Shown here: in pieces, positions 34,587-55,190 of the stretch
Layout of the letters: each line of letters begins with the position of its first letter
Numbering within the stretch: position 1 is the stretch's first letter
Notes under the pieces: generated by a model
What the model saw: only the letters and a program-made list of their open reading frames with translations
Database searches by the model: none
What the model was told of the DNA's origin: nothing
Translations under genes and position numbers: made by a program
From: Actinomycetes bacterium
Lineage (GTDB): Bacteria; Actinomycetota; Acidimicrobiia; IMCC26256; JANYLB01
Assembly (NCBI GenBank): GCA_025363815.1
Contig: JANYLB010000012.1
Span: 14,085-78,084 of the forward strand
Reading direction: 5' to 3'
Length of the DNA: 64,000 bases

Positions 34587-35309
34587 GTGACCGAAGAGCC
34601 GGCGTTGGACCTTCGAATCGACGACCTGGCCCGCGACAGCGGCCTGACTGTCGACACGATCCGCTTCTACCAACGTGAAGGCCTCCTCCCCGCCGCCCTG
34701 CGGGTCGGCCGGACGAAGGTCTACGGCCCCGCTCACCGGGAGCGGCTCGAGCAGATCCGCGACCTCCGCCAGCGACGCTTTTCGCTCGCGGCGATCAAGG
34801 CGCTGCTCGATTCGGAGCGGCCGGGCATCGTCGAGGGAATCTTCGGCGGCAGCACTGCCGACTACTCGCTCGAACAGCTCGTCACCCGCTCAGGCGTCGA
34901 TCCGGGGCTCGCCTACCGACTTCGAGATTCCGGCCTGTTGCGCGATCCCGCCGAGTTCGGGCGCGACGCGTACGACGCGGCCGACCTCGACCTCCTACGG
35001 GCCGTGGCCGAGCTTGCCCGCCTCGGTCTCCCCGGCGACGTGATCGTCGAGCTCACGAACATCTATACCGAAGGCGTCGAACGCATGCAGTCGCAGGTGC
35101 TCGACCTGTTCACGGGCAAGCGGGGACCGGGCTGGAAAGACGCAGACGAGCTGCGAGAGTTCCAGACCAACGCCGCCGCGTCAGCAGGAGAGCTCCTCCC
35201 GACCGTGACCCGGATGGTCGGTTACGTGCACCAACGGACTCTTCAACGACTCACGTTGGGTGCGATCAGGAATGCCGATCCGTCTCCCGGGCGCGACGAG
35301 CTCATCTAG
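34587..35309 (+). CDS. MerR family transcriptional regulator (second degenerate HTH-like segment)
   Basis: IDDLARDSGLTVDTIRFYQREGLL...YGPAHRERLEQIRDL; second segment SLEQLVTRSGVD...LRDSGLL; no Cys. Confidence 0.9.
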   Translation: MTEEPALDLRIDDLARDSGLTVDTIRFYQREGLLPAALRVGRTKVYGPAHRERLEQIRDLRQRRFSLAAIKALLDSERPGIVEGIFGGSTADYSLEQLVTRSGVDPGLAYRLRDSGLLRDPAEFGRDAYDAADLDLLRAVAELARLGLPGDVIVELTNIYTEGVERMQSQVLDLFTGKRGPGWKDADELREFQTNAAASAGELLPTVTRMVGYVHQRTLQRLTLGAIRNADPSPGRDELI

Positions 35310-36521: not shown

Positions 36522-36567
36522 CGTCCAACAGTTGGGACGTCCAACAGTAGGCTGACACGAGCGTCAG
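36522..36567. promoter_or_regulatory. Direct repeat CGTCCAACAGT x2 plus palindrome CTGAC-ACGAGC-GTCAG
   Basis: Repeats at 36522-36532 and 36538-36548; dyad 36552-36567; divergent intergenic region. Confidence 0.5.
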
Positions 36568-38901: not shown

Positions 38902-38931
38902 ACGGCTATCGCGCCCAGCGCGGATCCTCGA

Positions 38932-38950
38932 CCTGACGCCCCGTCAGATC
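38932..38950. promoter_or_regulatory. Candidate C/D-ring operator CCTGA-CGCCCCG-TCAGATC
   Basis: Palindrome upstream of -10 TATTCT (38958-38963) of ipdE1; motif recurs at 42213 and 54005. Confidence 0.6.
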
Positions 38951-38972
38951 TCGGGACTATTCTCCCGATCCG

Positions 38973-40187
38973 ATGGATCTCACGTTCTCCGCAGCCGACG
39001 ACGCCTTCCGCGTCGAGGCCCGAGCGTGGCTCAGCGAGCAGCTCACCGGTGATTTCGCGGGTGTGAGAGGCCGTGGCGGACCGGGCGACGAGCACGAGCT
39101 GTTCGACGAGCGACTCGCGTGGGAGCGCGCCCTCGGCGCGGCCCGGTGGACGTGCCTGTCGTTCCCCGAGCAGTACGGCGGGCGCGAGGCCACCCTCCTG
39201 CAGCAGGTGATCTTCTACGAGGAGTACGCCCGCGCCGGTGGGCCCGGACGCGTCGGCATCGTCGGTGAAGGCCTGATCGGCCCGACCATCCTCCACTTCG
39301 GCACCGACGAGCAGCGAGCCCGCTTTCTCCCGAAGATCGCAAGCGGTGAGGAGCTCTGGTGTCAGGGCTACTCGGAACCCAACGCCGGCTCCGACCTCGC
39401 GAACATCCAGACACGGGCCGAGCTCGTCTCTGGTCCTGACGGCGACGAGTGGACCATCACCGGCCAGAAGACCTGGACGTCACTGGCACAGTGGTCCGAT
39501 TGGTGCTTCGTGCTCTGTCGCACCGACCGGACGACGCCCCGCCACCGCGGGATCTCCTACCTGCTGGTACCGATGCGACAAGCAGGAATCGAAATCCGCC
39601 CGATCATCCAGCTCACCGGCACCTCGGAGTTCAACGAGACCTTCTTCGACGGCGCGCGCACCGCGGCCGAGAACGTGGTCGGCGACATCAACGGCGGCTG
39701 GCGTGTCGCAATGGGCACGCTCGCCTTCGAGCGAGGCGCCTCAACGCTCGGCCAGCAACTCACCTTCGAGCACGAGCTGAACGCGATCACCCGGGTCGCA
39801 CAGAAGAACGGCACCGCCGCCGAACCGGTAACGCGCCAACGCATCGCCGACATGTGGATCGGGTTGCGGATCATGCGCTACACCGCATTGCGAAGCCTGA
39901 GCGCCATGGGAAGCGGCGAGCTCACTCCTCAGACCGCGATTCACAAGCTCTACTGGGCGAGTCTCCACCGCGCGCTCGGCGAGCTCGCCGTCGATGTGCT
40001 CGGCGCCGACGCGATGATCGCCGAGGGAGTCTCCGGCGACGGGGCTTCATACGAGCTTGGCCCCGCGCAGCGACTGTTGTTGTGGACGCGCGCCGACACG
40101 ATCTACGGCGGTTCGAATCAGGTACAACGCAACATCATCGGCGAGCGGGCGCTCGGCCTGCCGCCCGAGCCGAAGGTGACATCTTGA
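38973..40187 (+). CDS. ipdE1: Acyl-CoA dehydrogenase IpdE1 (FadE30)
   Basis: RGRGGPGDEHE, QQVIFYEEYARA, WCQGYSEPNAGSDLA, TLAFERG, RADTIYGGSNQVQRNIIGER. Confidence 0.85.
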   Translation: MDLTFSAADDAFRVEARAWLSEQLTGDFAGVRGRGGPGDEHELFDERLAWERALGAARWTCLSFPEQYGGREATLLQQVIFYEEYARAGGPGRVGIVGEGLIGPTILHFGTDEQRARFLPKIASGEELWCQGYSEPNAGSDLANIQTRAELVSGPDGDEWTITGQKTWTSLAQWSDWCFVLCRTDRTTPRHRGISYLLVPMRQAGIEIRPIIQLTGTSEFNETFFDGARTAAENVVGDINGGWRVAMGTLAFERGASTLGQQLTFEHELNAITRVAQKNGTAAEPVTRQRIADMWIGLRIMRYTALRSLSAMGSGELTPQTAIHKLYWASLHRALGELAVDVLGADAMIAEGVSGDGASYELGPAQRLLLWTRADTIYGGSNQVQRNIIGERALGLPPEPKVTS

Positions 40188-40960
40188 GCATCCCGCAACC
40201 ACCCGCGTATCCCGAGGGGAAGGCGCTCCTCGACGGCCGAGCCGTGCTTGTAACAGCGGCCGCCGGAACAGGGATCGGCTTCGCCACCGCACTGCGATGC
40301 GCGGAGGAAGGCGCCCGCCTCGTGATCAGCGATTCCCACGAGCGCCGTCTCGCCGAGGCCGCCGAGAAGCTCGGAGACGCCGTAGCCGCCGCGGTTCCGT
40401 GCGACGTCACCGACGAAGACCAAGTGCAGCGGCTGTTCGCCGCGGCCGAAGATGCCACCGGCGGGATCGACGTGCTCGTGAACAACGCCGGCCTCGGTGG
40501 TCAGGTCGATCTCGTCGACATGACCGACGATCAGTGGCTGAAGGTCCTCGACGTAACGCTCAATGGCACGTTCCGCTGCATGCGGACCGCGCTCCGGCTC
40601 ATGACCCCTCGCCGAGCCGGTGTGATCGTCAACAACGCGTCGGTGCTCGGCTGGCGCGCGCAGGCAGGCCAAGCCCACTACGCCGCCGCGAAGGCAGGCG
40701 TGATGGCACTCACCCGGTGCGCAGCGATCGAGGCGGCGCCATCGGGTGTGCGGGTCAACGCGGTTGCGCCCAGCTTGGCGATGCATCCGTTTCTCGCCAA
40801 GGCCAGCAGCGAGGAGCTACTCACCGAGCTCACCGAGCGCGAGGCATTCGGCCGCGCCGCACAACCGTGGGAGGTCGCGAACGTGATCGTGTTCCTGGCC
40901 AGCGACTACTCGTCGTACATGACCGGCGAGGTGCTCTCCGTGTCGAGTCAGCACCCTTGA
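40184..40960 (+). CDS. ipdF: SDR IpdF (Rv3559c-like, HIP-CoA 5-oxo reductase)
   Basis: VTAAAGTGIG, SDSHERRL, NNASVLGWRAQ, YAAAK, SVSSQHP; TTG overlapping ipdE1 stop. Confidence 0.9.
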   Translation: MSIPQPPAYPEGKALLDGRAVLVTAAAGTGIGFATALRCAEEGARLVISDSHERRLAEAAEKLGDAVAAAVPCDVTDEDQVQRLFAAAEDATGGIDVLVNNAGLGGQVDLVDMTDDQWLKVLDVTLNGTFRCMRTALRLMTPRRAGVIVNNASVLGWRAQAGQAHYAAAKAGVMALTRCAAIEAAPSGVRVNAVAPSLAMHPFLAKASSEELLTELTEREAFGRAAQPWEVANVIVFLASDYSSYMTGEVLSVSSQHP

Positions 40961-41394
40961 TGGTCGACAAGGCCGCGTTGGGTCAGGCGGGAAAGCCGTT
41001 CGCCATGCCGATCGAGCGGGGAAAGATCCGCGAGTACGCACGCGCGATCGGCTCATCGCACCCCGACTACATCGACGCCGACGACCCGGTGGTGCCCGCG
41101 CACTTCCTAACGACCACGTTCTTCTGGGAGAACGACACAGGCAATCCGTGGGACCGCGTGGCGATGTCGCCGCAACGGGGAATGCACGCCGAGCAGGAGT
41201 ACGTGTTTCACGGCGAGCCACCCCGGGCGGGCATTCGGCTGATGTGCACGAGCCGGATTGACAAGATCTATGAGAAGACCAGCCGTAGCGGGAACGAGCT
41301 CACCTTCGTGGAGATGGTCACCGAGTTCCGCGATTCCCGAGGCGTGCTCGTCGCCGAGGCCAAGATGACTGCGGTCGAAACCGGCGAAGCATGA
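40960..41394 (+). CDS. MaoC N-terminal-type (FAS1/HadA-like) dehydratase subunit
   Basis: IERGKIREYARAIG, HAEQEY; TGATG coupling to ipdF. Confidence 0.85.
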   Translation: MVDKAALGQAGKPFAMPIERGKIREYARAIGSSHPDYIDADDPVVPAHFLTTTFFWENDTGNPWDRVAMSPQRGMHAEQEYVFHGEPPRAGIRLMCTSRIDKIYEKTSRSGNELTFVEMVTEFRDSRGVLVAEAKMTAVETGEA

Positions 41395-41786
41395 CCATCC
41401 CCGCTCCCCCACCGCCGCTCGTCTTCGGACCGATCACCCGCACCGACATCGTTCGGTATCAGGGCGCGTCGGGCGACTTCCAACCGATTCACCACGACGA
41501 GCCCTTCGCCCGGGATGCGGGCTACGACGCACCGCTCGTGGTCGGCATGCTGGGGGCCGGGCTGCTCACGACATGGGCAACCGACTGGCTCGGTCCGGCC
41601 AACGTGCGTCGTTCCCGCGTGCGGTGGACCGAACGGGTGTGGCCCGACGACACGCTCACCTGCTCGGGCGCGATTGAACGCGCCTATGAGGAAGGCGGCG
41701 AAGCCAGGGTCGACCTCGTGCTCGAGGCCGTGAACCAGAACGGCATCGTGGTGGTCAAGGGGTGGATGACGTTCGTCGGGGAATGA
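41391..41786 (+). CDS. MaoC (HadB-like) catalytic dehydratase subunit
   Basis: Hydratase-2 motif YQGASGDFQPIHHD. Confidence 0.88.
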   Translation: MTIPAPPPPLVFGPITRTDIVRYQGASGDFQPIHHDEPFARDAGYDAPLVVGMLGAGLLTTWATDWLGPANVRRSRVRWTERVWPDDTLTCSGAIERAYEEGGEARVDLVLEAVNQNGIVVVKGWMTFVGE

Positions 41787-41838
41787 GCCCGGAGCGGCAG
41801 CCGCCGCAAATGAGGCCGTGGGCTAGCGTCTCGCCGTC

Positions 41839-42129
41839 ATGGGTTGCTGTTTCGTTGTCGCGCTTCTCGCAATCGGGCCCCGGTTTGTTCTCTTGCTCAT
41901 GTGGCTCTCCACGACGCTGGTCGACCGCGCGTTCAACGGGTTCCTTCTCCCGTTGCTCGGCGTGCTCTTCCTCCCGTGGACCACCCTCTTCTATGTATTC
42001 GCGTATCAACCGATCAACGGGGTCGCCGGCATCGGCTGGTTCTTCGTGGCTTTCGGCTTCTTCTGCGATATCGCGTCTTACTCCGGTGGCGGCAGGGCTC
42101 AGCGTCGGCAGGCGAGACAGGCGCACTAG
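41839..42129 (+). CDS. Small hydrophobic membrane protein, hypothetical
   Basis: GPRF, LLGVLFLPWTTLFY; about 3 TM; TAGCGT upstream. Confidence 0.72.
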   Translation: MGCCFVVALLAIGPRFVLLLMWLSTTLVDRAFNGFLLPLLGVLFLPWTTLFYVFAYQPINGVAGIGWFFVAFGFFCDIASYSGGGRAQRRQARQAH

Positions 42130-42212
42130 CGCCGCGCGCGCTCGACCGATGCCGGAGCGATCCGTGCCGGCTGGGTGCCGCCAACCCGTGCCCGTATAAG
42201 GTGACCACTCGA

Positions 42213-42229
42213 TCTGAGCGCCCATCAGA
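42213..42229. promoter_or_regulatory. Candidate C/D-ring operator TCTGA-GCGCCCA-TCAGA
   Basis: Palindrome 9 nt upstream of echA20 start. Confidence 0.6.
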
Positions 42230-42238
42230 AAGCGTGCG

Positions 42239-43000
42239 ATGCCCATAACGAGCACCGTCGACGAGCGCGGCGTCGCCGAAGTCGTCATGGACAACCCGCC
42301 GGTCAACGCGCTGACAGTGGCCGGGTGGTTCGAGCTGGCCTCGACCGTGCGCGGGCTCGGCGAAGACCCCGAGGTCCGGGTGGTGGTGCTCCGGGCCGCG
42401 GGTCGCGGATTCAACGCCGGCGTCGACATCAAGGAGATGCAGGCGACCGATGGCTTCGAGGCGCTGATCAACGCCAACCGCGGCTGCTACGCCGCATTCG
42501 CGGCCGTCTACGAGTGCGCGGTCCCGGTGATCGCCGCGGTCAACGGCCACTGCCTCGGTGGCGGTATCGGCCTCGTCGGCAACGCCGACGTGATCGTGGC
42601 GTCCGACGATGCCACTTTCGGCCTCCCCGAGGTCGACCGCGGCGCGCTCGGCGCTGCTACCCACCTGGCCCGCCTCGTTCCCCAGCACAAGATGCGGGCG
42701 ATGGTCTACACCGGCGCGACTGCGACCGCCGCCGAGCTGCACCACCACGGATCGGTGCTCCGGGTCGTGCCGATCGCGGAGCTTCGCGACGCCGCGTTCG
42801 AAGTCGCGATCCAGATCGCGGCGAAGAGCCCCGCGGTCATCCGGGCGGCCAAGGAATCGCTCAACGGCATCGACCCGATCGACGTGAAGCGGAGCTACCG
42901 CTTCGAGCAGGGATTCACCTTCGAGCTGAACCTCTCCGGCGTCGCCGACGAGCACCGCGACGCCTTCGTCACCAAACGGGAGACCGACACGTCGAGATGA
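42239..43000 (+). CDS. echA20: Crotonase EchA20 (ring D hydrolase)
   Basis: PPVNAL, GFNAGVDIKEMQ, ANRGCYAAFAAVYECAVPV, PEVDRGALGAATHL, SYRFEQGFT. Confidence 0.93.
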   Translation: MPITSTVDERGVAEVVMDNPPVNALTVAGWFELASTVRGLGEDPEVRVVVLRAAGRGFNAGVDIKEMQATDGFEALINANRGCYAAFAAVYECAVPVIAAVNGHCLGGGIGLVGNADVIVASDDATFGLPEVDRGALGAATHLARLVPQHKMRAMVYTGATATAAELHHHGSVLRVVPIAELRDAAFEVAIQIAAKSPAVIRAAKESLNGIDPIDVKRSYRFEQGFTFELNLSGVADEHRDAFVTKRETDTSR

Positions 43001-43003
43001 ACC

Positions 43004-43852
43004 GTGCCCGATAAGCGAATATCCGAAGACGACGTCGTCGCCGAGCTGCGCGACGGCATGACCATAGGCATCGGCGGGTGGGGATCCCGGCGCAAGCCGA
43101 TGAGCCTCGTGCGCGCGATCGCCCGGTCGTCGCTGCGCGATCTCACCATCGTGAGCTACGGCGGCCCCGATGTAGGGCTCCTTTGCGCGACCGGCAAGGT
43201 CGAACGAGTCGTTTATGCGTTCGTGTCACTCGACTCGATCCCACTCGAGCCGCACTTCCGGGTCGCCCGTCAGACGGGCGCCGTCTCCACCCTGGAGCTC
43301 GACGAAGGCATGTTTCTCCTCGGTCTCCAGGCCGCGGCCTGGCGGGTGCCATTCCTGCCGACACGGGTCGGGCTCGGCTCCGACGTCGTCGACCGCCAGC
43401 CGGAGATCCGCACCGTCGTCTCCCCCTACGACGACGGTGAAGAGCTCGTCGCGGCGCCGGCGTTGCGGCTCGACGCCGCGCTCGTGCACATGCACAGGGG
43501 CGACGCAGGGGGCAACGGCCAGTACCTCAACGTCGACCCCTACTTCGATGACCTGTTCTGCATGGCGGCCGATCGCCGGTTCATGAGCGTGGAGCAGGTG
43601 CAAGAAACTGAGGACCTCCGGGGCAACGGACCGCTGCAGACGTTGAAGATAAATCGCCTGATGACTGATGGAATCGTCGAAGCTCCGTTCGGTGCCCACT
43701 TCACCGAGTGTGTGCCCGACTACCCCCGCGACGAGGCATTCCAAAAGGAGTACGCCGGGAGCGCTAAGTCGGCCGACGCATGGGTCGCGTGGCGCACGAA
43801 ATACCTCGACTGCGGCGGTCACGACGAATACCGAAAGGTCGTTGGGCTGTGA
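43004..43852 (+). CDS. ipdA: IpdA, ring C hydrolase alpha subunit (class II CoA-transferase fold)
   Basis: GIGGWGSRRKPM, YGGPDVGLL, FVSLDSIPLEP, ELDEGM, DPYFDDLF. Confidence 0.95.
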   Translation: MPDKRISEDDVVAELRDGMTIGIGGWGSRRKPMSLVRAIARSSLRDLTIVSYGGPDVGLLCATGKVERVVYAFVSLDSIPLEPHFRVARQTGAVSTLELDEGMFLLGLQAAAWRVPFLPTRVGLGSDVVDRQPEIRTVVSPYDDGEELVAAPALRLDAALVHMHRGDAGGNGQYLNVDPYFDDLFCMAADRRFMSVEQVQETEDLRGNGPLQTLKINRLMTDGIVEAPFGAHFTECVPDYPRDEAFQKEYAGSAKSADAWVAWRTKYLDCGGHDEYRKVVGL

Positions 43853-44625
43853 GCTCAGCATCGGGTCTCGTCACCAGGGCCGAGTATTGCGTGATCGCGG
43901 TCGCGGAGTGCTTCCGCGGCGACGGCGAGATCCTCGCCAACCCCATCGGCACGATTCCCATGATCGGCGGGCGGCTCGCACGCGCCAGCTTCGAGCCCGA
44001 CCTGGTGATGACCGACGGCGAGGCCACGTTTGTGACCGGGCCCTACCCTGTCGGCCCGACCGACGTGGTCAAGGTCGTCGAAGCGTGGAACCCCTACCGC
44101 TCGATGTTCGACGTGGTCTGGTCAGGTCGCCGGCACGTGATGATGGGCGCGTCGCAGATCGACCGGTTCGGCAACCAGAACTTCGCTTTCGTGGGCTCGT
44201 GGGACCAGCCGAAGGCGCAGCTGCTCGGCTTCCGCGGCGCGCCGGGCAACACGATCCAGAACACGACTTCGTACTGGGTCCCCAACCACTCGCCCAAGGT
44301 GTTCGTCACCAAGGTCGACGTGGTGAGCGGCGTCGGATACGACCGAGCCGCTGCTCTCGGCCCGGAGGCGTCACGGTTCCACGAGATCCGCCGGGTGGTA
44401 ACAAACCTCGGCGTGCTCGACTTCGACACTCCCGACCACACGATGCGGCTGCGATCGACGCACCCCGGTGTGACCGTCGACGAGATCGTCGCCGCGACCG
44501 GGTTCGACCTCGTGGTGCCCGAAGATGTCGGCGTCACCCGCGACCCCAGCCCCGATGAGCTCGAGCTCATCCAGGAGACCATCGACCCGCACGATCTCCG
44601 GGGCCAGGAAGTCCCCACTCCATGA
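43849..44625 (+). CDS. ipdB: IpdB, ring C hydrolase beta subunit
   Basis: TRAEYC, GARLAR-like GGRLAR, GRRHVMMGASQIDRFGNQN, RGAPGN, YWVPNHS. Confidence 0.95.
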   Translation: MSSASGLVTRAEYCVIAVAECFRGDGEILANPIGTIPMIGGRLARASFEPDLVMTDGEATFVTGPYPVGPTDVVKVVEAWNPYRSMFDVVWSGRRHVMMGASQIDRFGNQNFAFVGSWDQPKAQLLGFRGAPGNTIQNTTSYWVPNHSPKVFVTKVDVVSGVGYDRAAALGPEASRFHEIRRVVTNLGVLDFDTPDHTMRLRSTHPGVTVDEIVAATGFDLVVPEDVGVTRDPSPDELELIQETIDPHDLRGQEVPTP

Positions 44626-45692
44626 GCACCCATCGTGCGCTGAGCACGCGCGCGTGCGAGCTTTTCGGGGTCAAGTACCCGATCGTGCAGACGGGGATGG
44701 GCTGGGTCTCGGGCGCGCGCCTGACTGCGGCAACGAGCGCAGCCGGTGGGCTCGGAATTCTGGCGTCGGCAACGATGACCCTCGACGAGCTGCGCACCGC
44801 GATTCACGAGGTGAGGCAGCGCACCGACAACCCGTTCGGTGTGAATCTCCGCTCCGATCAGCCCGACGTCAACAACCGCATTCGACTGATCGTCGACGAG
44901 CACGTGCGGGTAGCGAGCTTCGCCCAGGCGCCGGGCGAGAGACTCGTGAAGACGCTGAAGGACGCCGGAGTCGTCGTGATGCCTACGGTCGGCGCCCGGA
45001 GGCACGCGGAGAAGGTCGCGGCCTGGGGCGTCGATGCGGTCATCGCCCAGGGAGCCGAGGGAGGCGGTCACACCGGCACGGTGCCGACCAGCCTGCTGCT
45101 TCCCCTGGTCGCCGAAGCCGTCGACATCCCGGTGCTCGGCGCCGGCGGCTTCTTCGACGGCCGGGGACTGGTGGCCGCGCTCGCCTACGGCGCGGCCGGC
45201 ATAGCCATGGGAACCCGTTTCCTCCTGACGCGCGAGAGCACCGTGCCCGACGACGTGAAGGCCGTCTACCTCACTACGCCAATCACCGGAACAGTCGTGA
45301 CGACGGCGATCGACGGTCACCCGCAGCGCGTGATCCTCACCGATGTGATCGAGCGCCTGTCGGGCTCGAGCCGCCTGACTGCGCTTCCCCGCGCGGTGCG
45401 CAACGCACTGGAGTTCCGCAAGCTCACCGGTACATCGGTCGGTGACCTCGCCCGTGAAGGCCTCGCTATGCGCAAGAGCCAGAACCTCACCCTGGCCCAA
45501 CTCGCGATGGCCGCCAACGCACCGATGCTCACCCGTGCCGCGATGGTCGATGGCCGACTCGACGCGGGCATTCTGCCGACCGGCCAGAACGTCGGCGTGA
45601 TCGACGAGCTCCCGACCGTCGCCGAGCTGATCGCACGCATCATGGAACAGGCCGACGCGACGCTGCGCCGCCTCGAAGGGAACAACGCATGA
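44622..45692 (+). CDS. ipdC: IpdC (nitronate monooxygenase / 2-NPD family flavoprotein)
   Basis: PIVQTGMGWV, RHAEKV, QGAEGGGHTG, AGGFFDGRGL, ANAPML; follows ipdAB. Confidence 0.92.
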   Translation: MSTHRALSTRACELFGVKYPIVQTGMGWVSGARLTAATSAAGGLGILASATMTLDELRTAIHEVRQRTDNPFGVNLRSDQPDVNNRIRLIVDEHVRVASFAQAPGERLVKTLKDAGVVVMPTVGARRHAEKVAAWGVDAVIAQGAEGGGHTGTVPTSLLLPLVAEAVDIPVLGAGGFFDGRGLVAALAYGAAGIAMGTRFLLTRESTVPDDVKAVYLTTPITGTVVTTAIDGHPQRVILTDVIERLSGSSRLTALPRAVRNALEFRKLTGTSVGDLAREGLAMRKSQNLTLAQLAMAANAPMLTRAAMVDGRLDAGILPTGQNVGVIDELPTVAELIARIMEQADATLRRLEGNNA

Positions 45693-45708
45693 TCCAGGAG
45701 ACGAGCCC

Positions 45709-46134
45709 ATGACGAAGCCGAAGGTTGCCGCCATCGAAGGGTGGTTCACCACCGGCGACGAGCCGAAGCTGCTCGCGAGCCGAGGCGCCACCACCGGCAG
45801 CGTCTTCTTCCCCAAAAGCCTCGCGTTCTCTCGCAACCCCGCTGCCCCTGCGGAGGAGCTCGAAGAGACCACGCTGGGGCGGCGCGGTCGGGTGTGGTCT
45901 TGGACGACCAACCACTACCAGCCGCCGGCGCCGTATATCTCGCCCGAGCCGTTCGTTCCTTACACCGTTGTCGCCGTCGAGCTGCCCGACGAGAAGATGG
46001 TGGTGCTCGGGCAACTGGCCGCGGGCGACGATCCCGACACCCTGTCTGTCGGCGCGGAAGTCGAGCTCGTGCTCGGCACCCTTTTCGAAGACGACGAAGC
46101 GGAGCGCCTCATGTGGAACTGGAAATTGGTATGA
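45709..46134 (+). CDS. DUF35 OB-fold protein lacking zinc-ribbon cysteines
   Basis: GRVWSWT, YQPPAPY, AVELPDEKMVVLGQ; SD AGGAG; no Cys. Confidence 0.85.
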   Translation: MTKPKVAAIEGWFTTGDEPKLLASRGATTGSVFFPKSLAFSRNPAAPAEELEETTLGRRGRVWSWTTNHYQPPAPYISPEPFVPYTVVAVELPDEKMVVLGQLAAGDDPDTLSVGAEVELVLGTLFEDDEAERLMWNWKLV

Positions 46135-47327
46135 GTGCTCCGGAGGGTGTCGCGGTTCTCGGGGTCGGCATGCACCCCTGGGGCAAATGGGGTCGCAACT
46201 TCGTCGAGTACGGCGTGGTCGCCGCCCGAGCTGCACTCGATGATGCCTGCGTCGACTGGCGCGACGTGCAATTCGTCGCCGGCGGCGAGACCGTTCGCAA
46301 CGGCTACCCCGGTTACGTCGCCGGCGCGTCGATCGCGCAGGCCCTCGGGTGGCAGGGAGCTCCTGTCTCTTCGTCGTACGCGGCCTGCGCCTCGGGTGCT
46401 ACGGCGCTCAACGCTGCTCGCGCGCAGATTCTCGCCGGTCTCGTCGACGTCGCGCTCGTCGTGGGTGCCGATACGACTCCGAAGGGATTCCTCGCGCCCA
46501 ACGCCGGTGAGCGGGGTGACGATCCCGACTGGCTGCGGTTCCGGCTCCTCGGCGCGACAAACCCCACTTACTTCGGCTTGTACGCGCGCCGGCGCATGGA
46601 GGTCTTCGGTGCCACGCAGTCCGACTTCGCCAAGGTGAAGGTGAAGAACGCGCGCCATGGCCTCCACAACCCGAACGCGCGGTTCCGCAAGGAGGTCACA
46701 GAGGCTGACGTCGACGCGTCTCCCGTGGTTTCGGATCCGCTGCGGTTGCTCGAGATCTGCGCCACGAGCGATGGTGCGGCAGCGATCGTGCTGTCGAGCC
46801 TCGACTACGCCAAGTCGAAGGGAGCGAAGGCTCCGGTGCGGATCGCGGCGGTATCGACGGTGACGCCCACCTACCCGAACACTGTGATCGAGATGCCGAA
46901 CTTCGCGACCGACTCCGCGGCCGCGGTCGCGTTGCCCGAACGCACCTTCCGCGACTCGATCGCGTACGCCGCATACGAACAGGCCGGTTTGGGGCCGCAA
47001 GACATGAGTCTCGCCGAGGTCTACGACCTCTCGACCGCGCTCGAGCTCGACTGGTACGAGAACATCGGGCTCTGCGAGGCCGGTCAAGCCGAACGACTCC
47101 TGAACGACGGCGACACGACCATCGGTGGTCGCATCCCGGTGAATCCGAGCGGCGGGCTCGCCTGCTTCGGCGAAGCGGTGCCCGCGCAGGCCATCGCGCA
47201 GGTCTGCGAGCTCACCTGGCAGCTCCGCGGCGTTGCCGGCGAACGCCAGGTCGAGGGCGCGACCGCGGGGATCTCCGTGAACCAGGGGCTCTTCGGGCAC
47301 GGCTCGTCGGTGATCGCCGTCCGCTGA
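46131..47327 (+). CDS. Thiolase-fold lipid-transfer (SCP2-type) protein
   Basis: GMHPWGKWG, AACASG, ICATSDGAAA, EVYDLS, VNPSGGL, NQGLFGHG. Confidence 0.88.
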   Translation: MSAPEGVAVLGVGMHPWGKWGRNFVEYGVVAARAALDDACVDWRDVQFVAGGETVRNGYPGYVAGASIAQALGWQGAPVSSSYAACASGATALNAARAQILAGLVDVALVVGADTTPKGFLAPNAGERGDDPDWLRFRLLGATNPTYFGLYARRRMEVFGATQSDFAKVKVKNARHGLHNPNARFRKEVTEADVDASPVVSDPLRLLEICATSDGAAAIVLSSLDYAKSKGAKAPVRIAAVSTVTPTYPNTVIEMPNFATDSAAAVALPERTFRDSIAYAAYEQAGLGPQDMSLAEVYDLSTALELDWYENIGLCEAGQAERLLNDGDTTIGGRIPVNPSGGLACFGEAVPAQAIAQVCELTWQLRGVAGERQVEGATAGISVNQGLFGHGSSVIAVR

Positions 47328-47379
47328 GCGTTCTGTATTACGGCGGCCGGCTCCTCCCCGCCACCTAGTGTGAGCGGCC

Positions 47380-49002
47380 GTGGCCGACTGCTGGAACCTC
47401 GCTGACCTGTTCGAAGCCGTTGCCGACGTAGCCCAAGATCGCGAAGCGGTCGTCTCCGACAATCGCCGACTCACTTACAGAGAGCTCGACGAACGAGCCA
47501 CGCGCCTTGCGCACCACCTGGCCGCGAACGGCGTGCAGGCCGGCGACCACGTGGGAATCTACGCGTACAACGGCCCCGAGTGGATCGAGGCGATGTTCGC
47601 CGCCTGGAAGATCCGCGCGGTTCCGATCAACGTCAACTACCGCTACGTCGAGGCAGAGCTTCGCTACTTGTTCGACAACGCGGATCTGGTCGCGCTGGTA
47701 CACGGCCGCGAGTTCGTGCCGCGAATCGCCGCAGTCAGGGATGAGTGTCCGAAGCTAAGGGTCTTCGTTTCAATCGATGATGATACCGATGAGGATCTTT
47801 CTGCGATCGGCGCGATCGAGTACGAAACCGCGCTGGGCGGCGCCTCACCCGAGCGCGATTTCGCGCCCCGCTCCCCCGCTGATCTCTACATCCTCTACAC
47901 GGGCGGCACCACCGGGATGCCGAAGGGCGTCATGTGGCGCCAGACCGACTACTTCAACTCGACTATCGGCGCGCTCATGCGCATGGGTGGCGCGCCGTTC
48001 GAGTCGTTCGACGAGGTAATCGAAGAAGCAAGGACCGCTACCGGAACCGTCGGGTTCCCGCTCGCGCCGCTCATGCACGGTGCGGCGCAGTGGGTCGCGA
48101 CCATGCTCCTCATCCAGGGCAACAAGGTCGTGCTCTCGTCGGCGCGCCGTCTCGACCCAGTCGCGACCTGGCGCACCATCGAGCGCGAGAAGGTGATGAC
48201 GACGAGCCTCGTCGGCGACGCCATGGCCCGTCCGCTCATCGAAGCCCTCGATCTGGCCGAGCTCGCCGACATCGATCTCTCCGCGTTCTTCGTGATCGGC
48301 TCGGGCGGAGCGATCCTCTCCCCTACGGTGAAGGAAGCAATAGCGAAGCGTCTACCGAACGTCCTCGTGATCGACTCTCTCGGGGCGTCGGAGACCGGAT
48401 ACCAGGGCACCGTCGCAGGATCCGACTCAGAGGGCAAACCCCGCTTCGCAATGGGCGAGCACACGACGGTGCTCGATGACTCAGGCAAGCCCGTGGTCCC
48501 TGGAGACGGTGTGATCGGGCGCCTCGCCCGTCGCGGCTACATGCCCATCGGCTATTACAAGGACCCCGAGAAGACCGCAGCGACATTCATCGAGATCGAC
48601 GGCGAACGGTGGGCCCTTCCCGGCGATATGGCTCGCGTCGAGGCCGACCAAACGATCACACTCCTCGGGCGCGGTTCGGTGAGCATCAACTCGGGCGGCG
48701 AGAAGGTCTACCCCGAAGAGGTCGAGCTCGCGCTGAAGTCGCACCCCGACGTGTTCGATGTCGTCGTCGTGGGTGTGCCCGACCAACGCTGGGGCGAGCG
48801 CGTCGTTGCTGTCGTGAAGGCTCGCCCCGGAGCGACCCCCGACGCGGGTGAGCTGGCCGAACATGCTCGGGCCACGATCGCGGGTTACAAGGTGCCGCGT
48901 GCGATCGTCGTGGTCGACGAGATGGTGCGCTCACCTTCAGGCAAGGCCGACTACCGCTGGGCGAAGGCCACCGCGGTGGCCGATGCAGCCGGCACTGCCT
49001 GA
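47380..49002 (+). CDS. fadD19: Acyl-CoA synthetase, FadD19-like steroid-CoA ligase
   Basis: NLADLFE, NVNYRY, YTGGTTGMPKGVMWRQ, VGDAMARP, GRGSVSINSGGEKVYPEEVE, RSPSGKADYRWA. Confidence 0.78.
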   Translation: MADCWNLADLFEAVADVAQDREAVVSDNRRLTYRELDERATRLAHHLAANGVQAGDHVGIYAYNGPEWIEAMFAAWKIRAVPINVNYRYVEAELRYLFDNADLVALVHGREFVPRIAAVRDECPKLRVFVSIDDDTDEDLSAIGAIEYETALGGASPERDFAPRSPADLYILYTGGTTGMPKGVMWRQTDYFNSTIGALMRMGGAPFESFDEVIEEARTATGTVGFPLAPLMHGAAQWVATMLLIQGNKVVLSSARRLDPVATWRTIEREKVMTTSLVGDAMARPLIEALDLAELADIDLSAFFVIGSGGAILSPTVKEAIAKRLPNVLVIDSLGASETGYQGTVAGSDSEGKPRFAMGEHTTVLDDSGKPVVPGDGVIGRLARRGYMPIGYYKDPEKTAATFIEIDGERWALPGDMARVEADQTITLLGRGSVSINSGGEKVYPEEVELALKSHPDVFDVVVVGVPDQRWGERVVAVVKARPGATPDAGELAEHARATIAGYKVPRAIVVVDEMVRSPSGKADYRWAKATAVADAAGTA

Positions 49003-49023
49003 GCACGAACCCTCTCCCACGGC

Positions 49024-50190
49024 ATGCAACATTCGCGCCAGGCGCCGCCGCGCATCCCGCGCCTCTTGTACGTCGCGGTCGCCGTCGAGGCCCTCGGCTA
49101 CGGGGGGATCTTCGCGCTGCTCGCTGATCTCCAGAACCGCTACGGCCTCCCGACCTACGGCCTCGGCCTCATCGGGGGAGCCAGCTTCCTCGCCGGTCTC
49201 GTCGCGCAGGTCTCCCTCGCTCGCTACGCCGACCGCGGCTATACCCGCCTCCTGCTCCGATCGGGGCTCGCCGTAGCGGCTGGTGGGATGCTGTGGTTCG
49301 GCCTTGCTACGCACCTCTGGGAGTTCATCGGCGCGCGAGTGCTCCTGGGTCTCGGCTCCGGGGTCTTCATCCCCGCGACCCGCCGAGTGGTGGTGAGTCG
49401 AGCGGGTGACCGCGCGGGTGAGGCACTGGGGCGCCTGGCCAGCGTCGAGGTCGGTGGGTTCATCGCCGGCCCCCCGATCGCCGCGTTGATAGCGGGGACG
49501 CTCGGGCTCCACGCACCATTCATCGTGTTCGCCGTCGCGCTGGCGGTCACGTCACCAGCGGTCGCCCGCCTCGACGAGCCTCCCGTCGAGGCACAAGGAG
49601 ACAAACGGGTCGTTCGGATGTTGCTTCGCCGGCGGGGAGTGCTCGCCGGCCTGTCACTCGGAGCCGCTCTGTTCCTATCGATCGGTGTGTTCGACGCGAT
49701 GTGGGCCAAGTACATGAACGACCTCGGCGCGAGCACCGCCGTGATCGCTGTGACCCTGGCCCTATTCGCGCTCCCACTAGTCGCGCTCAGCCCGTTCGGC
49801 GGCCGCATCGCGGATCGTCGAGGCCCTGTCCGCAGCTCGGTGCTCGCGCTGGCCATCAGCGTGCCCTGCATCGTGGGCTACGGGTTGACCGGCTCAATCG
49901 CCTTCGCCTGCGTCCTCGCGCTGGTGCACTCGTTCTGCGATGCCGTGACCACACCCGCGAGCCAGACTGCCGTCGCCAGGGCCGCCCCAGCGTCGCTCGC
50001 CGCGGCCGGTCAGGGGCTCTACGGCGCGGTCGGGGCCGCTGCGGCGGCGTTCGCTGCCTTCGGCGCTGCCCCCCTCTACGGAGCGGCCGGGCCCGAGGTC
50101 ATGTGGGCCGTCTGCGGCGGGCTCGTCGGCGTGCTCGCACTCGCGGCCTTCCTGTTGGGACGCGGCAGCACCGTCGACCAACTCCGTTAG
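49024..50190 (+). CDS. MFS transporter
   Basis: About 12 hydrophobic helices, ARYADRG and GRIADRRG loops. Confidence 0.88.
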   Translation: MQHSRQAPPRIPRLLYVAVAVEALGYGGIFALLADLQNRYGLPTYGLGLIGGASFLAGLVAQVSLARYADRGYTRLLLRSGLAVAAGGMLWFGLATHLWEFIGARVLLGLGSGVFIPATRRVVVSRAGDRAGEALGRLASVEVGGFIAGPPIAALIAGTLGLHAPFIVFAVALAVTSPAVARLDEPPVEAQGDKRVVRMLLRRRGVLAGLSLGAALFLSIGVFDAMWAKYMNDLGASTAVIAVTLALFALPLVALSPFGGRIADRRGPVRSSVLALAISVPCIVGYGLTGSIAFACVLALVHSFCDAVTTPASQTAVARAAPASLAAAGQGLYGAVGAAAAAFAAFGAAPLYGAAGPEVMWAVCGGLVGVLALAAFLLGRGSTVDQLR

Positions 50191-50272
50191 CCCCGAGTCT
50201 CCCCGTCGGTACTAGTCAGCTTTTCCCCGGGGCGATCCAATGGAAGGCGAGATCCCGAGCGGCACGGGCTTC

Positions 50273-52237
50273 TCAGTTGTGGCCGTCGCGCACGACGAGG
50301 GCCACGACGCGCATCGTGATGATCGTCGCGAGGAACATGCCCGAGTATCCGATTGCCGCGAGGATAGAAGCGTCTCTCGCGTCCGGCTCCTGCGCGGAGG
50401 CGAGCAACAGGAGCGCCGATACCACGAGACTGAACAACCCAACCGCGGCGAGCACTGCTCGGTTGAGGAGCGTCAGCACGAAGGCGGCGTCGTCGGGGTC
50501 GGCGTAGCGACGACTGCGGATGCTCAGCTGACCGCTCCGGAGCTGATTCGCAATTGCCTCGGCGGAATCGGGCAATGTCCGCAGTGACGGAAGGCTGCGC
50601 AGCAGCTCCTGGTTCAGCTGCGCCTGGAGCGCGTCGGAGTCGGCAGGAGTGACCATCGGACGCGCCAACTCGGCCGCGTGGGTCGCGGTCGAATACCCCG
50701 GCGCGAGCGTCCTGAGGGTGCCGTCGAGCGTGATGAGCGCCCGGGCGAGCAGCGTGAACGAATGCGGGACCGATAGGTGGTTCCGCCGCAACACGCCGAT
50801 CATCGCCTGGAACATCCCGACGTCGAGACCCCCGCCATGGCTCACATGCACGGCGAGGAACCGGCCGAGATCCGACTCGAGGCGGCTGACGTCGGCACCC
50901 GGCGGGGGCGGCGCGATCGCGAGCACCGCTCGTCGCAGCAACGCAGGATCGTTCAACTCCGTCGCGAGCAGCATCCCGCCGAGCGCTTGGAGCGTGACCG
51001 CGTCGAGCACACCCGTCGAGCCGAAGTCGAGCAGCACGAGCGTGCCGTCGGCCTCCACGAGGATGTTGCCCGGATGGGGATCGGCGTGGAAGATGCCGTC
51101 GGAGAGCGTCTGGGCGAGGAACGAGCCGAGGAGCCGGTTGGCGAGCACCTCGCGTGACACCGGTGCAGCGTCGACCGAGGCCGCGTCGGCGATCGAATGC
51201 CCTCCCATCTCCTCGAGCACGAGCATCCGCCGCGTCGACACGTGTTCGTAAACCTGGGGAATGCGGACGCCCTCATCGGCCCGGCGATTCCCTCGGACCC
51301 GCGCCTCTGATCGGGCCTCGGCAGTGAAGTCGAGCTCCTCTTCCACCGCATCTGTGAACTCGCGCACCAGCGAGATGATGTCGACCCGAAGCCCGAGGGT
51401 CGTGCGACGCTGCAGGAATCCCGCGAGCGACAACATCGCCTGCGTGTCCCGCGAGACGATGTCGGCAATGCCCGGACGCTGGACCTTGACGACGACCCGT
51501 TCGCCTGTCGTCAGCACGGCGCGGTGCACCTGACCGATCGACGCCGCCGCTAGCGGCTCCCAATCGAACGACACGAACACATCTTCGACCGGCCGGCCCA
51601 GCTCCTCCTCGACCACGGTGCGGATGCCGGCGGCCGACTCCGGGGCCACGCCCGCCTGGAGCTCGGTGAGCTGGGTGATCAGCGGCGCGGGAAGGAGGTC
51701 GCCGCGCGTCGACGCGACCTGTCCGAGCTTCACGAACATCCCACCGCATTCCTCGAGGGTCGCCCGTAGGCACAAACCGAATGCGGGATCGGCGATCCCG
51801 ACAGACGAGGCGAAGCGCCGGTGCAGCAACCCCTGGCGCTTTGCGATGCGCAACACCTGCTGGAAGCGAAGCGGGGGCGCGATGGTGCGCTGCACCCGCC
51901 GGACCGGGTGGGGCATTTGCGGGAGCCGACCCAGGTGATCCTCATTGGTCCTACGGCCCGGGCTCGCGATGAACTCCCACGCGATCGCGAGACCCATAGT
52001 GGAGATGATCGAGAACGCCGCCACCCGAATCGCGAGATCCAGGTTTGACGGCAGCCGGTCCTGGTATGACACCGCCGCGACCAAGACGCCGAGCACGAAG
52101 CCGAGCACACCGGTGATCACGCTGCGCAGCGCAGCGCGCCGGATGCCGAGGAGGCGCGATGCCAACCAGGCCAGGAACAGCACCGGAAACAGGATCGCGA
52201 CAAGCTCAATGGTGTCGTGGACGACGATGTTGATCAC
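50273..52237 (-). CDS. ABC1/AarF/UbiB family kinase with N- and C-terminal TM helices
   Basis: FVKLGQ, AAASIGQVH, VVKVQRP, EELDF, FHADPHPGN, LLDFG. Confidence 0.93.
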   Translation of the reverse strand: MINIVVHDTIELVAILFPVLFLAWLASRLLGIRRAALRSVITGVLGFVLGVLVAAVSYQDRLPSNLDLAIRVAAFSIISTMGLAIAWEFIASPGRRTNEDHLGRLPQMPHPVRRVQRTIAPPLRFQQVLRIAKRQGLLHRRFASSVGIADPAFGLCLRATLEECGGMFVKLGQVASTRGDLLPAPLITQLTELQAGVAPESAAGIRTVVEEELGRPVEDVFVSFDWEPLAAASIGQVHRAVLTTGERVVVKVQRPGIADIVSRDTQAMLSLAGFLQRRTTLGLRVDIISLVREFTDAVEEELDFTAEARSEARVRGNRRADEGVRIPQVYEHVSTRRMLVLEEMGGHSIADAASVDAAPVSREVLANRLLGSFLAQTLSDGIFHADPHPGNILVEADGTLVLLDFGSTGVLDAVTLQALGGMLLATELNDPALLRRAVLAIAPPPPGADVSRLESDLGRFLAVHVSHGGGLDVGMFQAMIGVLRRNHLSVPHSFTLLARALITLDGTLRTLAPGYSTATHAAELARPMVTPADSDALQAQLNQELLRSLPSLRTLPDSAEAIANQLRSGQLSIRSRRYADPDDAAFVLTLLNRAVLAAVGLFSLVVSALLLLASAQEPDARDASILAAIGYSGMFLATIITMRVVALVVRDGHN

Positions 52238-52289
52238 GCTCGGGCCCGATCACCGATGGGCTGTATCACGATGACATGCTCCATTCTCT

Positions 52290-53018
52290 CTAGGGATCAC
52301 GACGCTCGACGATGACCGTGCCGATCACGGCCAGGCCGACGGCCCACGCCGCGTACACGAGCACGGCGACGAACCACAGCGAGAGGCCACTGCGGATGCT
52401 GGTGGCGGGAATCGATGCGAACGCCGCGCGGAACGGAAGCACCGAGCCCAGGCCTTCGGACGCGAACACCGTCACCAAGGATTCGAGCACGAACATGTCG
52501 AGGAGCACCGCGGTGATGCCCAGAGCCGAGTTGCGGGTGATCGATCCTACGGCGATACCTAGGGCCACTGAGATTCCCGCGGCAAGGACATATCCGGAGA
52601 CGGTCTCGACCAGGCGAGCGTCGATCGGGATCGAATGGCCGTAGCTATTCGCCACGATGCTCGCGACCACGAACGATCCGGCGATGGCGATGAGCGCGCT
52701 CACGAGCCCGACCGCGACGCCGAAGATCATCTTCGCGAGAATGAGCCGACTGCAATCGGGGACTGAGGTGAAGGTCGCTCGGATGGTCCCGAAGCGGTAC
52801 TCCTGCGCGATGAGCTGGACGCCGAGCACGAGGAGCAGCACGATCACGAAGGTCGAGCTCACCGCGAGCGACTCGGCCGGATCGCGACCCTTGGAGGAAT
52901 CGACGGCGATTCCGGCGATCAAGAGCGCGACCACGACCGCGACCGCGACCGCGATCATCACCCAGGGGCTACGAACCGAGCGGAACTTGATCCACTCCCC
53001 GCGCAGCAACGCGCTCAC
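52290..53018 (-). CDS. ABC-2 type transporter permease
   Basis: EWIKFRSVRS, EYRFGTIRATF, six TM, C-terminal RRDP. Confidence 0.88.
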   Translation of the reverse strand: MSALLRGEWIKFRSVRSPWVMIAVAVAVVVALLIAGIAVDSSKGRDPAESLAVSSTFVIVLLLVLGVQLIAQEYRFGTIRATFTSVPDCSRLILAKMIFGVAVGLVSALIAIAGSFVVASIVANSYGHSIPIDARLVETVSGYVLAAGISVALGIAVGSITRNSALGITAVLLDMFVLESLVTVFASEGLGSVLPFRAAFASIPATSIRSGLSLWFVAVLVYAAWAVGLAVIGTVIVERRDP

Positions 53019-53977
53019 GAACCCGCCTCGCCGGCCCGGAATTCCTGGGTCTTGGAGGTGAGGCGGAGGAACGCGTCCTCGAGCGACGGCTCGCGCGGGG
53101 TGAGCTCGTGCAGCACGATTCCGTTCGCCGCCGCGAGCTCGCCGACCGAAGCCGCGTCGAGGCCCGTCACATCGAGCCGCAGGGACTCGCCGGCCCCGCC
53201 ACCTTCAACCCCGCCACCTTCAGCCCCGACATCGTCGACGACCACGGCGGCACCGGTGCGCGCGATTAGCTCACCGAGTCGGCGCGCGTCGGGGCTCACG
53301 ACAGTGACGAGGGGACGTCCTTGCGTGCCGAGCACGTCGTGCAGAGAACCGGAGGCGAGCAGCCGGCCCTTTCCGATCACTACGAGCTCGTCGACGACCT
53401 GACCGAGCTCCGACAGTAGGTGGCTGGAGACGAACACGCTCCGGCCCTGATCGGCGAGGTAACGCATGGACCTGCGGATCCACAAGATCCCCTCGGGGTC
53501 GAGGCCGTTCGCGGGTTCGTCGAGAATCATCACCGGCGGGTCGCCGAGGAGCGCAAGAGCGAGACCGAGGTGCTGGGACATCCCCAACGAGAACCCACCT
53601 GCTCGGCGTGTCGCCACATCGGCGAGGCCCACAAGACCGAGCACCTCGTCGACCCGCGCGTCGGGAATCCGATTGGTGGCCGCGAACATGGCCAGGTGGT
53701 TGCGGGCCGACCGTCGGGGGTGAACCCCCTCGGCGTCGAGGAGCGCACCGACCGAACGCATAGGATCCGCCAGCTCCCGATACCGGTGTCCGTCGAACGT
53801 CGCCTGCCCCGAGTCGGCCCTGTCCAGTGCGAGCATCACCCGCATGGTCGTCGACTTGCCGGCGCCATTCGGCCCGACAAATCCCGTCACCGCGCCGGGG
53901 CGGACAGAGAAGCTGAGGCCGTCGACGGCGAGGACACTCCCAAATCGTTTGGTGATCCCCGACACCTCGATCTGCAT
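53015..53977 (-). CDS. ABC transporter ATP-binding protein
   Basis: GPNGAGKST, FSLGM, ILDEPANGLDP, VSSHLL. Confidence 0.93.
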   Translation of the reverse strand: MQIEVSGITKRFGSVLAVDGLSFSVRPGAVTGFVGPNGAGKSTTMRVMLALDRADSGQATFDGHRYRELADPMRSVGALLDAEGVHPRRSARNHLAMFAATNRIPDARVDEVLGLVGLADVATRRAGGFSLGMSQHLGLALALLGDPPVMILDEPANGLDPEGILWIRRSMRYLADQGRSVFVSSHLLSELGQVVDELVVIGKGRLLASGSLHDVLGTQGRPLVTVVSPDARRLGELIARTGAAVVVDDVGAEGGGVEGGGAGESLRLDVTGLDAASVGELAAANGIVLHELTPREPSLEDAFLRLTSKTQEFRAGEAGS

Positions 53978-54004
53978 CCGAGGGATGGTAGGTCTTCGGC
54001 CGAT

Positions 54005-54023
54005 TCTGACCGGGCGCCAGATC
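54005..54023. promoter_or_regulatory. Candidate C/D-ring operator TCTGA-CCGGGCG-CCAGATC
   Basis: One-mismatch palindrome upstream of -10 TAGCCT of fadE31. Confidence 0.55.
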
Positions 54024-54045
54024 GGCTTGTAGCCTCGCAAACCGC

Positions 54046-55185: not shown

Positions 55186-55190
55186 GGCCG

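Follow-up and report, generated by a model that had tools for sequence, protein, structure and literature searches.

Three operons for degradation of rings C and D of steroids, all within a 64,000-nucleotide stretch of the genome of an uncultured member of the class Acidimicrobiia (Actinomycetota; GenBank assembly GCA_025363815.1, contig JANYLB010000012.1, positions 14,085 to 78,084; hereafter the window), are each preceded by a copy of one palindrome: GACCTGACGCCCCGTCAGATC at 38930-38950, before ipdE1-ipdF; GATCTGAGCGCCCATCAGAAA at 42211-42231, before echA20-ipdABC; and ATTCTGACCGGGCGCCAGATC at 54003-54023, before fadE31-fadE32-fadA6. These palindromes are most likely the operators of a homodimeric TetR_C_38 repressor, predicted from a gene at positions 66076-66708 of another contig of the assembly (C9) and represented in Streptomyces, by synteny, by SCO4421/SAV3818. 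In computational comparisons the motif is conserved, co-occurs with the gene of this regulator, and is mutually exclusive with the box of KstR2, which serves these operons in mycobacteria.

The palindromes were recovered where the original prediction had placed them, and their promoter position was borne out: all three are intergenic, the distance from site centre to the following gene start (38973, 42239, and 54046) being 33, 18, and 33 bp. The gene identities proposed for the three operons also held (IpdA against PDB chains; EchA20-, IpdF-, and FadA6-like proteins by NCBIfam; the fadE genes by synteny). The consensus first proposed, yCTGA-N7-yCAGATC, picked out genuine sites and was corrected by matrix iteration to a symmetric form, rATCTGACG-N3-CGTCAGATy, of which the second and third sites are degenerate copies, scoring 12.9 and 11.9 against 24.1 for site 1 with a Streptomyces-derived matrix; that matrix is partly dependent, its training sites having been chosen with the matrix of the source genome (G000, 89% complete; G001 onward denote relatives or genomes of a phylum sample). 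Within the window, CTGA-N7-YCAGA gave four strand matches at the three places against 0.81 expected, and 1 of 100 shuffles reached four, a lenient test in that the pattern was taken from the sites themselves. The concern that the motif might occur at background frequency applies to the bare core CTGA-N7-TCAG, which showed no genome-wide excess (27 places versus 13-34 for other spacers) and was dropped as a descriptor, but not to the longer TCTGA-N7-TCAGA, which was enriched (6 versus 0-2 for other spacers). With a matrix built from the three sites, 11 of the 12 best genome matches, and 8 of the 9 non-seed matches, were intergenic; intergenic DNA makes up 10% of the genome under the gene caller of this analysis. 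A matrix built from nine other sites, leaving out the three in the window, ranked the window sites 1, 2, and 4, with a coding match at rank 3. The Streptomyces matrix returned 11 intergenic matches among its top 15 in G000, and 30 column-shuffled matrices gave at most 7.

Genome-wide, scores of 21.6-31.7 are reached by 12 promoter-proximal sites, after which, one coding match aside, the best promoter-proximal score falls to 15.9. Besides the three in the window, six lie on C9 and one each on contigs C2, C62, and C43. Those on C9 precede a FadD3-family ligase gene (733 bits versus a cut-off of 657), an amidohydrolase gene divergent from a deacylase-like gene, a short-chain dehydrogenase/reductase (SDR) gene, a second amidohydrolase gene, a pair of acyl-coenzyme A (acyl-CoA) dehydrogenase genes, and a TetR gene that diverges from one for a family III CoA-transferase; the remaining targets are an acyl-CoA dehydrogenase gene (C2), a SnoaL-like gene with an ATP-binding cassette (ABC) binding protein gene (C62), and a sulfatase gene (C43). 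The expectation that a genome scan would find sites before fadD3 and before a regulator gene was thus confirmed. Further matches comprise three intergenic ones at 19.6-21.2 without obvious target (C6, C26, C45) and three coding ones at 20.7-22.6. The ipd gene set found in the genome consists of echA20, ipdAB, ipdC, ipdF, fadE30-32, fadA6, and fadD3; no protein of G000 exceeded the family cut-off for IpdE2/FadE33. The original proposal that these operons are controlled by a regulator other than KstR2 is supported, but the regulon extends far beyond HIP catabolism.

Only one of the 20 TetR genes in the genome has a site within 400 bp upstream, namely C9:66076-66708 (score 28.6; next best 4.4). 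Its product combines a PF00440 TetR helix-turn-helix (HTH) domain with a PF19352 TetR_C_38 domain, and the names in its homologue list point to Acidimicrobiia. The structural model (pLDDT 92.7) has an EthR-like fold (Foldseek TM 0.75, 24% identity), and EthR is also the best phmmer match. No variation occurs in the HTH segment ATFYQYF over 23 aligned rows spanning Acidimicrobiia to Streptomyces; one row of another alignment reads ASFYQYF. A site lies upstream of the regulator orthologue in 12 of 30 loci fetched.

Conservation was followed among 61 genomes, the source genome and 60 relatives. echA20 occurs in 47, and among the 30 best of these, 3 of which lacked upstream sequence, a site scoring at least 15 precedes it in 16 of 27; the KstR2 box precedes it in none. 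The corresponding sites are conserved in 5 of 29 cases before ipdE1 and 6 of 30 before fadE31 (the best 30 of 38 and of 45 genomes, respectively). The ipdE1 site lies at exactly -32 in G002, G004, and G005, and G003 has a consensus copy at the operator 3 offset before fadE31. Conservation upstream of orthologues therefore applies to echA20, and a motif common to all three operons describes the present genome; the counts indicate that three-operon control is a feature of this genome and the relatives nearest to it, with the echA20 site as the stable element. Of 39 relatives with a regulator match (including G013, whose sole match is 33% identical and probably the paralogue described below), 29 have at least two strict 19-bp sites; of 22 without a match, one does, namely G003, which is 76% complete. 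Split by family, the relatives fall 14, 1, 0, and 8; kin are not independent, and the P value was given no weight. Nine relatives with echA20 and without a regulator match have 0-1 strict sites. In two relatives without the regulator, G021 and G039, the echA20 promoter still has a degenerate motif with one extra base, which may be a site in decay or a site on its way to the 4-bp spacer discussed below. Across a sample of 301 genomes of the phylum, at least two sites occur in 23 of 29 genomes with a strong PF19352 match (E < 1e-15) versus 2 of 272 without, a tally that, alone among these counts, takes in G179 (flagged as unpublished; no regulator, one site). In 69 stretches from 11 genomes, chosen by pattern match or nearness to the regulator, 84 of 89 sites lie outside called open reading frames, and the commonest first genes are those for amidohydrolases, acyl-CoA dehydrogenases, the FadD3-family ligase, an OB-fold protein, and fadE31-like genes.

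The KstR2 box was confirmed to be missing from these regions: AnCAAGnnCTTGnT has two matches in the genome and its relaxed form three, all coding and none on the contig of the window, and the box is absent at the three window promoters and at orthologous promoters of KstR2-negative genomes. The reported lack of a kstR2 gene in the window extends to the 89%-complete genome, where a Streptomyces KstR2 query gave no match at E 1e-12; the best match among the 61 genomes is 38% identical, and KstR2 orthologues among actinomycetes are more than 50% identical according to the available passages of PMC3068626. The KstR2 motif and three positions used here agree with those passages, and the regulon enzymes with the portions of PMC5380842 at hand. 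In the phylum sample, IpdA occurs in 34 of 301 genomes, with KstR2 at E 2e-56 or better in 15 of the 34 (nine candidates scored per genome) and a TetR_C_38 protein in 18 of the other 19. Before echA20, KstR2-positive genomes have the KstR2-type pattern in 11 of 12 examined (the twelfth has a variant) and the new motif in none, whereas KstR2-negative genomes have the new motif in 11 of 19 and the KstR2 box in none. The eight misses are G283 (score 11.3), G253 and G319 (a degenerate site at the same place), G068, G141, G155, and G169 (echA20 inside an operon; in G155 a site lies 828 bp upstream), and G024. These data, together with the echA20 sites of the relatives, support replacement of KstR2 by a non-orthologous regulator at the echA20-ipd promoter. 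Of the "different or divergent" regulator first envisaged, a different protein is indicated (22.7 bits to true KstR2, separate clades) and a divergent KstR2 is not.

In Streptomyces the regulator and the ipd genes are arranged differently. The regulator is present in 9 of 9 genomes of a family (f51) whose closest named relatives are all Streptomyces; there it is 39-42% identical to the candidate, groups in the same clade (support 99/99, in a midpoint-rooted tree with a long-branch warning), and shares the PF19352 C-terminal family. Its gene adjoins kbpA, two genes from afsK and near afsR (NCBIfam above cut-off), and the afsK-type motif occurs in 80 of 80 loci. Among these 80 named regulator loci, 237 sites were found, 215 of them non-coding, and none with the reversed matrix. 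In one genome, G345, the 60 kb around the regulator hold 11 sites with scores of 15 or more, before homologues (38-71% identity) of genes on C9 and C47 of the source genome; the afsR-afsK-kbpA region there (G345:C1:3550001-3610000) sits inside a CoA-dependent catabolic cluster of about 60 kb with about a dozen operators, one before a FadD3-family ligase gene. G323 and G268 keep the regulator with one strict site each, and have no FadD3-family ligase above cut-off and no IpdA match. A true KstR2, scoring 235 bits to PDB 2ibd and 203 to 4w97, is encoded in the Streptomyces ipd cluster, which also has KstR2-type boxes. The Streptomyces box, AnCAAAnn[CT]TTGnT, is a one-base variant of the mycobacterial consensus. 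By gene order and passages of two papers, rather than sequence comparison, the orthologue corresponds to SCO4421/SAV3818: SCO4421 is described as a TetR gene near afsK (SCO4423), expressed in spores and without phenotype on deletion (available portion of PMC3878966), and SAV3816 as afsK-av, with SAV3818 stimulating avermectin by a mechanism not known (available portion of PMC5640586). SCO4167, which has the largest regulon of an atlas made by sequencing after DNA affinity purification (DAP-seq), was considered as the counterpart and set aside; nothing linked it to the candidate, and synteny indicated SCO4421.

Several observations weigh against assigning the palindromes to the TetR_C_38 protein, and the low conservation at ipdE1 and fadE31 belongs with them. 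A strong upstream site is absent from 18 of 30 loci of regulator orthologues, and the Streptomyces gene has only a weak site, scoring 2.8, at its own start. A regulator match without any strict site occurs in four relatives (G013, G028, G043, G056) and in G142 of the phylum sample; six relatives (G017, G022, G024, G040, G043, G053) have the regulator and no echA20 site; and in G283, with three strict sites and ipd genes, no orthologue was found. The co-occurrence could partly reflect joint inheritance of the whole catabolic cluster among kin that are not independent. Stimulation of antibiotic production by SAV3818, reported in the passages seen of PMC3742746 and PMC5640586, fits repression only indirectly.

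Putative promoters were placed by TAnnnT boxes, whose starts gather, over 62 sites, at offsets +17/+18 (22 counts) and -25 to -23 (16 counts) relative to the centre of the site, against a distal mean of 0.09 per offset. On this basis sites 1 and 3 appear to cover the -35 region of near-leaderless transcripts, and site 2 appears to begin at about +1, just past the presumed transcription start. Both positions would be compatible with a TetR dimer that represses by steric hindrance and comes off when it binds its ligand; a typical activator site cannot lie just past the transcription start. A bound TetR_C_38 dimer would block RNA polymerase in either position until a small ligand frees it, a CoA thioester or a lipophilic pathway intermediate being the most plausible candidate; the nature of the target genes makes a CoA thioester plausible, and HIP-CoA is not to be assumed because the Streptomyces regulon excludes echA20-ipdABC. 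Besides its own gene, the repressor would control roughly a dozen operons of CoA-dependent catabolism, which take in the ipd genes in Acidimicrobiia and in several further actinobacterial families without KstR2; echA20-ipdABC would be held by KstR2 in Streptomyces and in mycobacteria-like genomes. The operator is real and well conserved, it has a strong candidate repressor, and the proposed mechanism is that of an ordinary TetR switch. The palindromes could also be the binding sites of a non-TetR factor or of an activator, the left half-site CTGACG serving at the same time as a -35 element, or be promoter elements for an alternative sigma factor; at sites 1 and 3 a CTGAC hexamer stands 18-19 bp before a TAnnnT box, and the sites of G283 would fit such a reading. 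The symmetric 19-bp dyad with its free centre, the position of the echA20 site past the -10 box, and the close association with a single TetR family over distant lineages nevertheless make this explanation unlikely.

The genome also carries a second palindrome with the same half-site and a 4-bp spacer, TGAC[AG]-N4-[CT]GTCA (N4, as against N3 for the operator described above), with 36 matches, 26 of them intergenic; three lie in the window (29553-29566, 36553-36566, 63159-63172). The element at 36553 is conserved in all four relatives in which the orthologous gene lay in the stretch, of 11 stretches examined. The pair of spacers raises the possibility that N3 is bound by a paralogous TetR with the HTH segment RTSHGTFYLYF (C14:27903 or C47:80258), or that one protein reads both spacings; these proteins are the closest paralogues of the candidate, at 28-29% identity, and lie amid similar genes. 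The two motifs, however, segregate independently: G021, G019, and G037 have 12-14 N4 and no N3 sites, and G001, G025, G032, and G042 have 0-1 N4 and 3-9 N3 sites. The C47:80258-type paralogue is present in G021 and G019, which lack strict N3 sites, and was not found in G345, G114, and G289, which have 7, 7, and 18; the Streptomyces loci contain 236 N3 versus 5 N4 matches; and the paralogues and the N3 candidate form separate clades. An N4 site precedes the paralogue at C14:27903 (at C14:27697) and its orthologues in G003 and G021. On presence and absence together with N3/N4 segregation, these paralogues were rejected as N3 binders, and the explanation, with its single-protein variant, appears quite unlikely. 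The N4 operator is itself probably read by the TetR at C14:27903, as a candidate. Two N3-site operons of G345 have homologues in G000 under N4 sites (window 29553; C9:95720), which suggests that the regulon has been divided between paralogues.

Very unlikely, too, is an operator of a divergent KstR2 orthologue, such as the TetR at window 10275-10859, or of a kstR2 gene missing from the incomplete assembly. That protein is the sole TetR_C_24 match in the genome (28.3 bits against a cut-off of 26.4), and divergent KstR2-like proteins do occur in 2 of the 61 genomes; but it scores 42 bits to KstR2 structures, versus 203-235 for true Streptomyces KstR2, and has no upstream site, on which it was rejected both as KstR2 and as the binder. 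KstR2-level matches are found in 0 of 61, and Streptomyces genomes have both, a true KstR2 with a box of its own and, at other places, the new motif. The gene at 10275-10859 is divergent from an acyltransferase-like gene. The two KstR2-like proteins (36-38% identity; G038, C162 and G020, C83) belong to one Acidimicrobiia family, and that of G038 lies directly upstream of ipdA-ipdB. That the palindromes are RNA hairpins (terminators or attenuators) or remnants of repeat elements is barely credible: site 1 folds with z = -3.1, but sites 2 and 3, at -1.2 and +0.2, do not support a hairpin function, what is kept is the arm sequence and the exact spacing and not only the pairing, and sites 1 and 3, being upstream of the presumed start, would not be transcribed.

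Table 1. Operators, promoter boxes, and genes of the three operons, in window coordinates.
Feature	Position	Strand	Remarks
Operator 1, near-consensus	38930..38950	.	over presumed -35 region of ipdE1-ipdF operon; score 28.4
Putative -10 box TATTCT	38958..38963	+	begins 18 bp past operator 1 centre, 9 bp before ATG
Acyl-CoA dehydrogenase, IpdE1/FadE30-like	38973..40187	+	named by synteny with ipdF; no match to a specific family model
SDR, IpdF-like	40184..40960	+	above NCBIfam cut-off for PRK07831, which we take to be IpdF
Two MaoC-type dehydratase genes	40960..41786	+	probably co-transcribed
Putative -10 box TAAGGT	42197..42202	+	begins 24 bp before operator 2 centre; relatives have similar hexamers here
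Operator 2, degenerate here	42211..42231	.	before echA20-ipdABC; near-consensus in relatives
EchA20-like enoyl-CoA hydratase	42239..43000	+	above NCBIfam cut-off for PRK07938, presumably EchA20
IpdA	43004..43852	+	E 3e-101 versus PDB 6co6, 6e-98 versus 6con (taken to be Rhodococcus and M. tuberculosis IpdAB)
IpdB-like CoA-transferase beta subunit	43849..44625	+	synteny
IpdC-like, nitronate monooxygenase/FabK family	44622..45692	+	synteny
OB-fold (ChsH2-C) gene and thiolase-like gene (PRK06059)	45709..47327	+	within echA20 operon here
Operator 3, degenerate	54003..54023	.	between fadE31 and divergent ABC ATPase gene
Putative -10 box TAGCCT	54030..54035	+	begins 17 bp past operator 3 centre
Acyl-CoA dehydrogenase pair, FadE31/FadE32-like	54046..56147	+	named by synteny
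FadA6-like thiolase	56196..57344	+	above NCBIfam cut-off for PRK07801, assumed to be FadA6

The OB-fold and thiolase-like pair is an insertion in the echA20-ipdABC operon, its homologues standing under an operator of their own in G345, G289, G184, and G157. Elsewhere in the window, a perfect 11-bp inverted repeat with a 4-bp gap (34508-34533) lies upstream of a MerR-family gene (34587-35309) and is possibly the operator of that gene. A KstR-like TetR_C_20 gene occupies window 20527-21144 (145 bits, below the cut-off of 280), and the genome has seven intergenic KstR-type boxes; those at 18854-18867 and 20480-20493 stand between an acyl-CoA ligase gene and an echA19-like gene and before the KstR-like gene itself, and another lies in the C9 cluster at C9:12420.

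Canonical enzymes for the A and B rings were looked for among the same genomes. No KstD-type flavoprotein was found in the incomplete genome G000, where the sole FAD_binding_2 matches are NadB and SdhA; KshA was not specifically searched. Among five genomes, the HsaC-type extradiol dioxygenase model had a match in G002 and none in G000, G345, G184, or G289. The available text of PMC4810484 gives 55 of 57 Streptomyces genomes as lacking a steroid pathway; IpdA occurs in 7 of the 9 Streptomyces genomes sampled here. One speculative extension, possible though on balance doubtful, is that TetR_C_38 was the older ipd regulator of Actinomycetota and gave way to KstR2 in no lineages but the mycobacteria-like ones and Streptomyces; that the regulon marks a CoA-dependent upper route opening polycyclic steroid- or terpenoid-like rings without KstD or HsaC and feeding the Ipd enzymes; and that in Acidimicrobiia a paralogue took over part of the regulon through a one-base-longer spacer. 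The genes behind the proposed route are those of the FadD3-family ligase, amidohydrolases, acyl-CoA dehydrogenase pairs, thiolase/OB-fold pairs, and flavin/F420 oxidoreductases. Were this extension true, the effect of SAV3818 on antibiotic yield would run via acyl-CoA supply.

The motif is apparently undescribed in the published literature searched. No description of it or its regulon was found in work on KstR2 in Acidimicrobiia, TetR sites, afsK, or SCO4421/SAV3818, nor of the motif in the accessible parts of PMC7807495, PMC7324645, and PMC9782250; SCO4421 is not mentioned in the main text, as available, of the Streptomyces DAP-seq atlas (10.64898/2026.06.06.730586), the supplements of which may hold the motif. 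The present analysis supplies a predicted site and target list for a conserved Streptomyces regulator, SCO4421/SAV3818 by synteny, reported to raise antibiotic yield. It also indicates that, in 18 of 19 sampled ipd genomes without KstR2, the steroid C/D-ring genes are under a predicted non-orthologous regulator, so that searches with the KstR2 box would miss those regulons. The regulon outlines a CoA-dependent pathway under joint control with the Ipd enzymes in genomes that yielded no canonical A/B-ring enzymes, and the N3/N4 pair, with its shared half-site, would be a natural case of paralogues parting specificity by spacing.

The proposed system resembles that of KstR2 in its TetR-family palindrome control of echA20-ipdABC, ipdF-fadE30, fadE31/32, fadA6, and fadD3 at their promoters; autoregulation may be a further likeness, a site before the regulator gene being present in G000 and in 12 of 30 orthologue loci, and absent or weak in the others and in Streptomyces. 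It differs in that the candidate is a TetR_C_38 protein, that the site is an odd 19-21-bp ATCTGACG-N3-CGTCAGAT rather than the 14-bp AnCAAGnnCTTGnT, and that about 12 promoters are covered here versus three, including those of amidohydrolases, CoA-transferases, additional acyl-CoA dehydrogenases, a sulfatase, and an ABC binding protein; the effector of KstR2 is HIP-CoA. KstR (Rv3574) is likewise a TetR repressor with a dispersed steroid and lipid regulon, but it has a TetR_C_20 C-terminal family and another box, and is not the binder of the new motif. EthR of M. tuberculosis, a local regulator with a lipophilic ligand tunnel and a long cooperative operator, offers the nearest solved fold, but its identity to the candidate is low and its local action and operator set it apart. 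The SAV151 and PccD sites, in the part of the table in PMC10933834 available, have the TGAC half-site in common, but their arms and spacing differ, they lack the N3 dyad, and they belong to other regulators. SCO4421/SAV3818 corresponds, by gene order beside kbpA-afsK, to the Streptomyces orthologue of the candidate, which falls in the same clade as the candidate, but in the seven genomes checked the Streptomyces-type echA20 stands under a KstR2-type box rather than the new motif.

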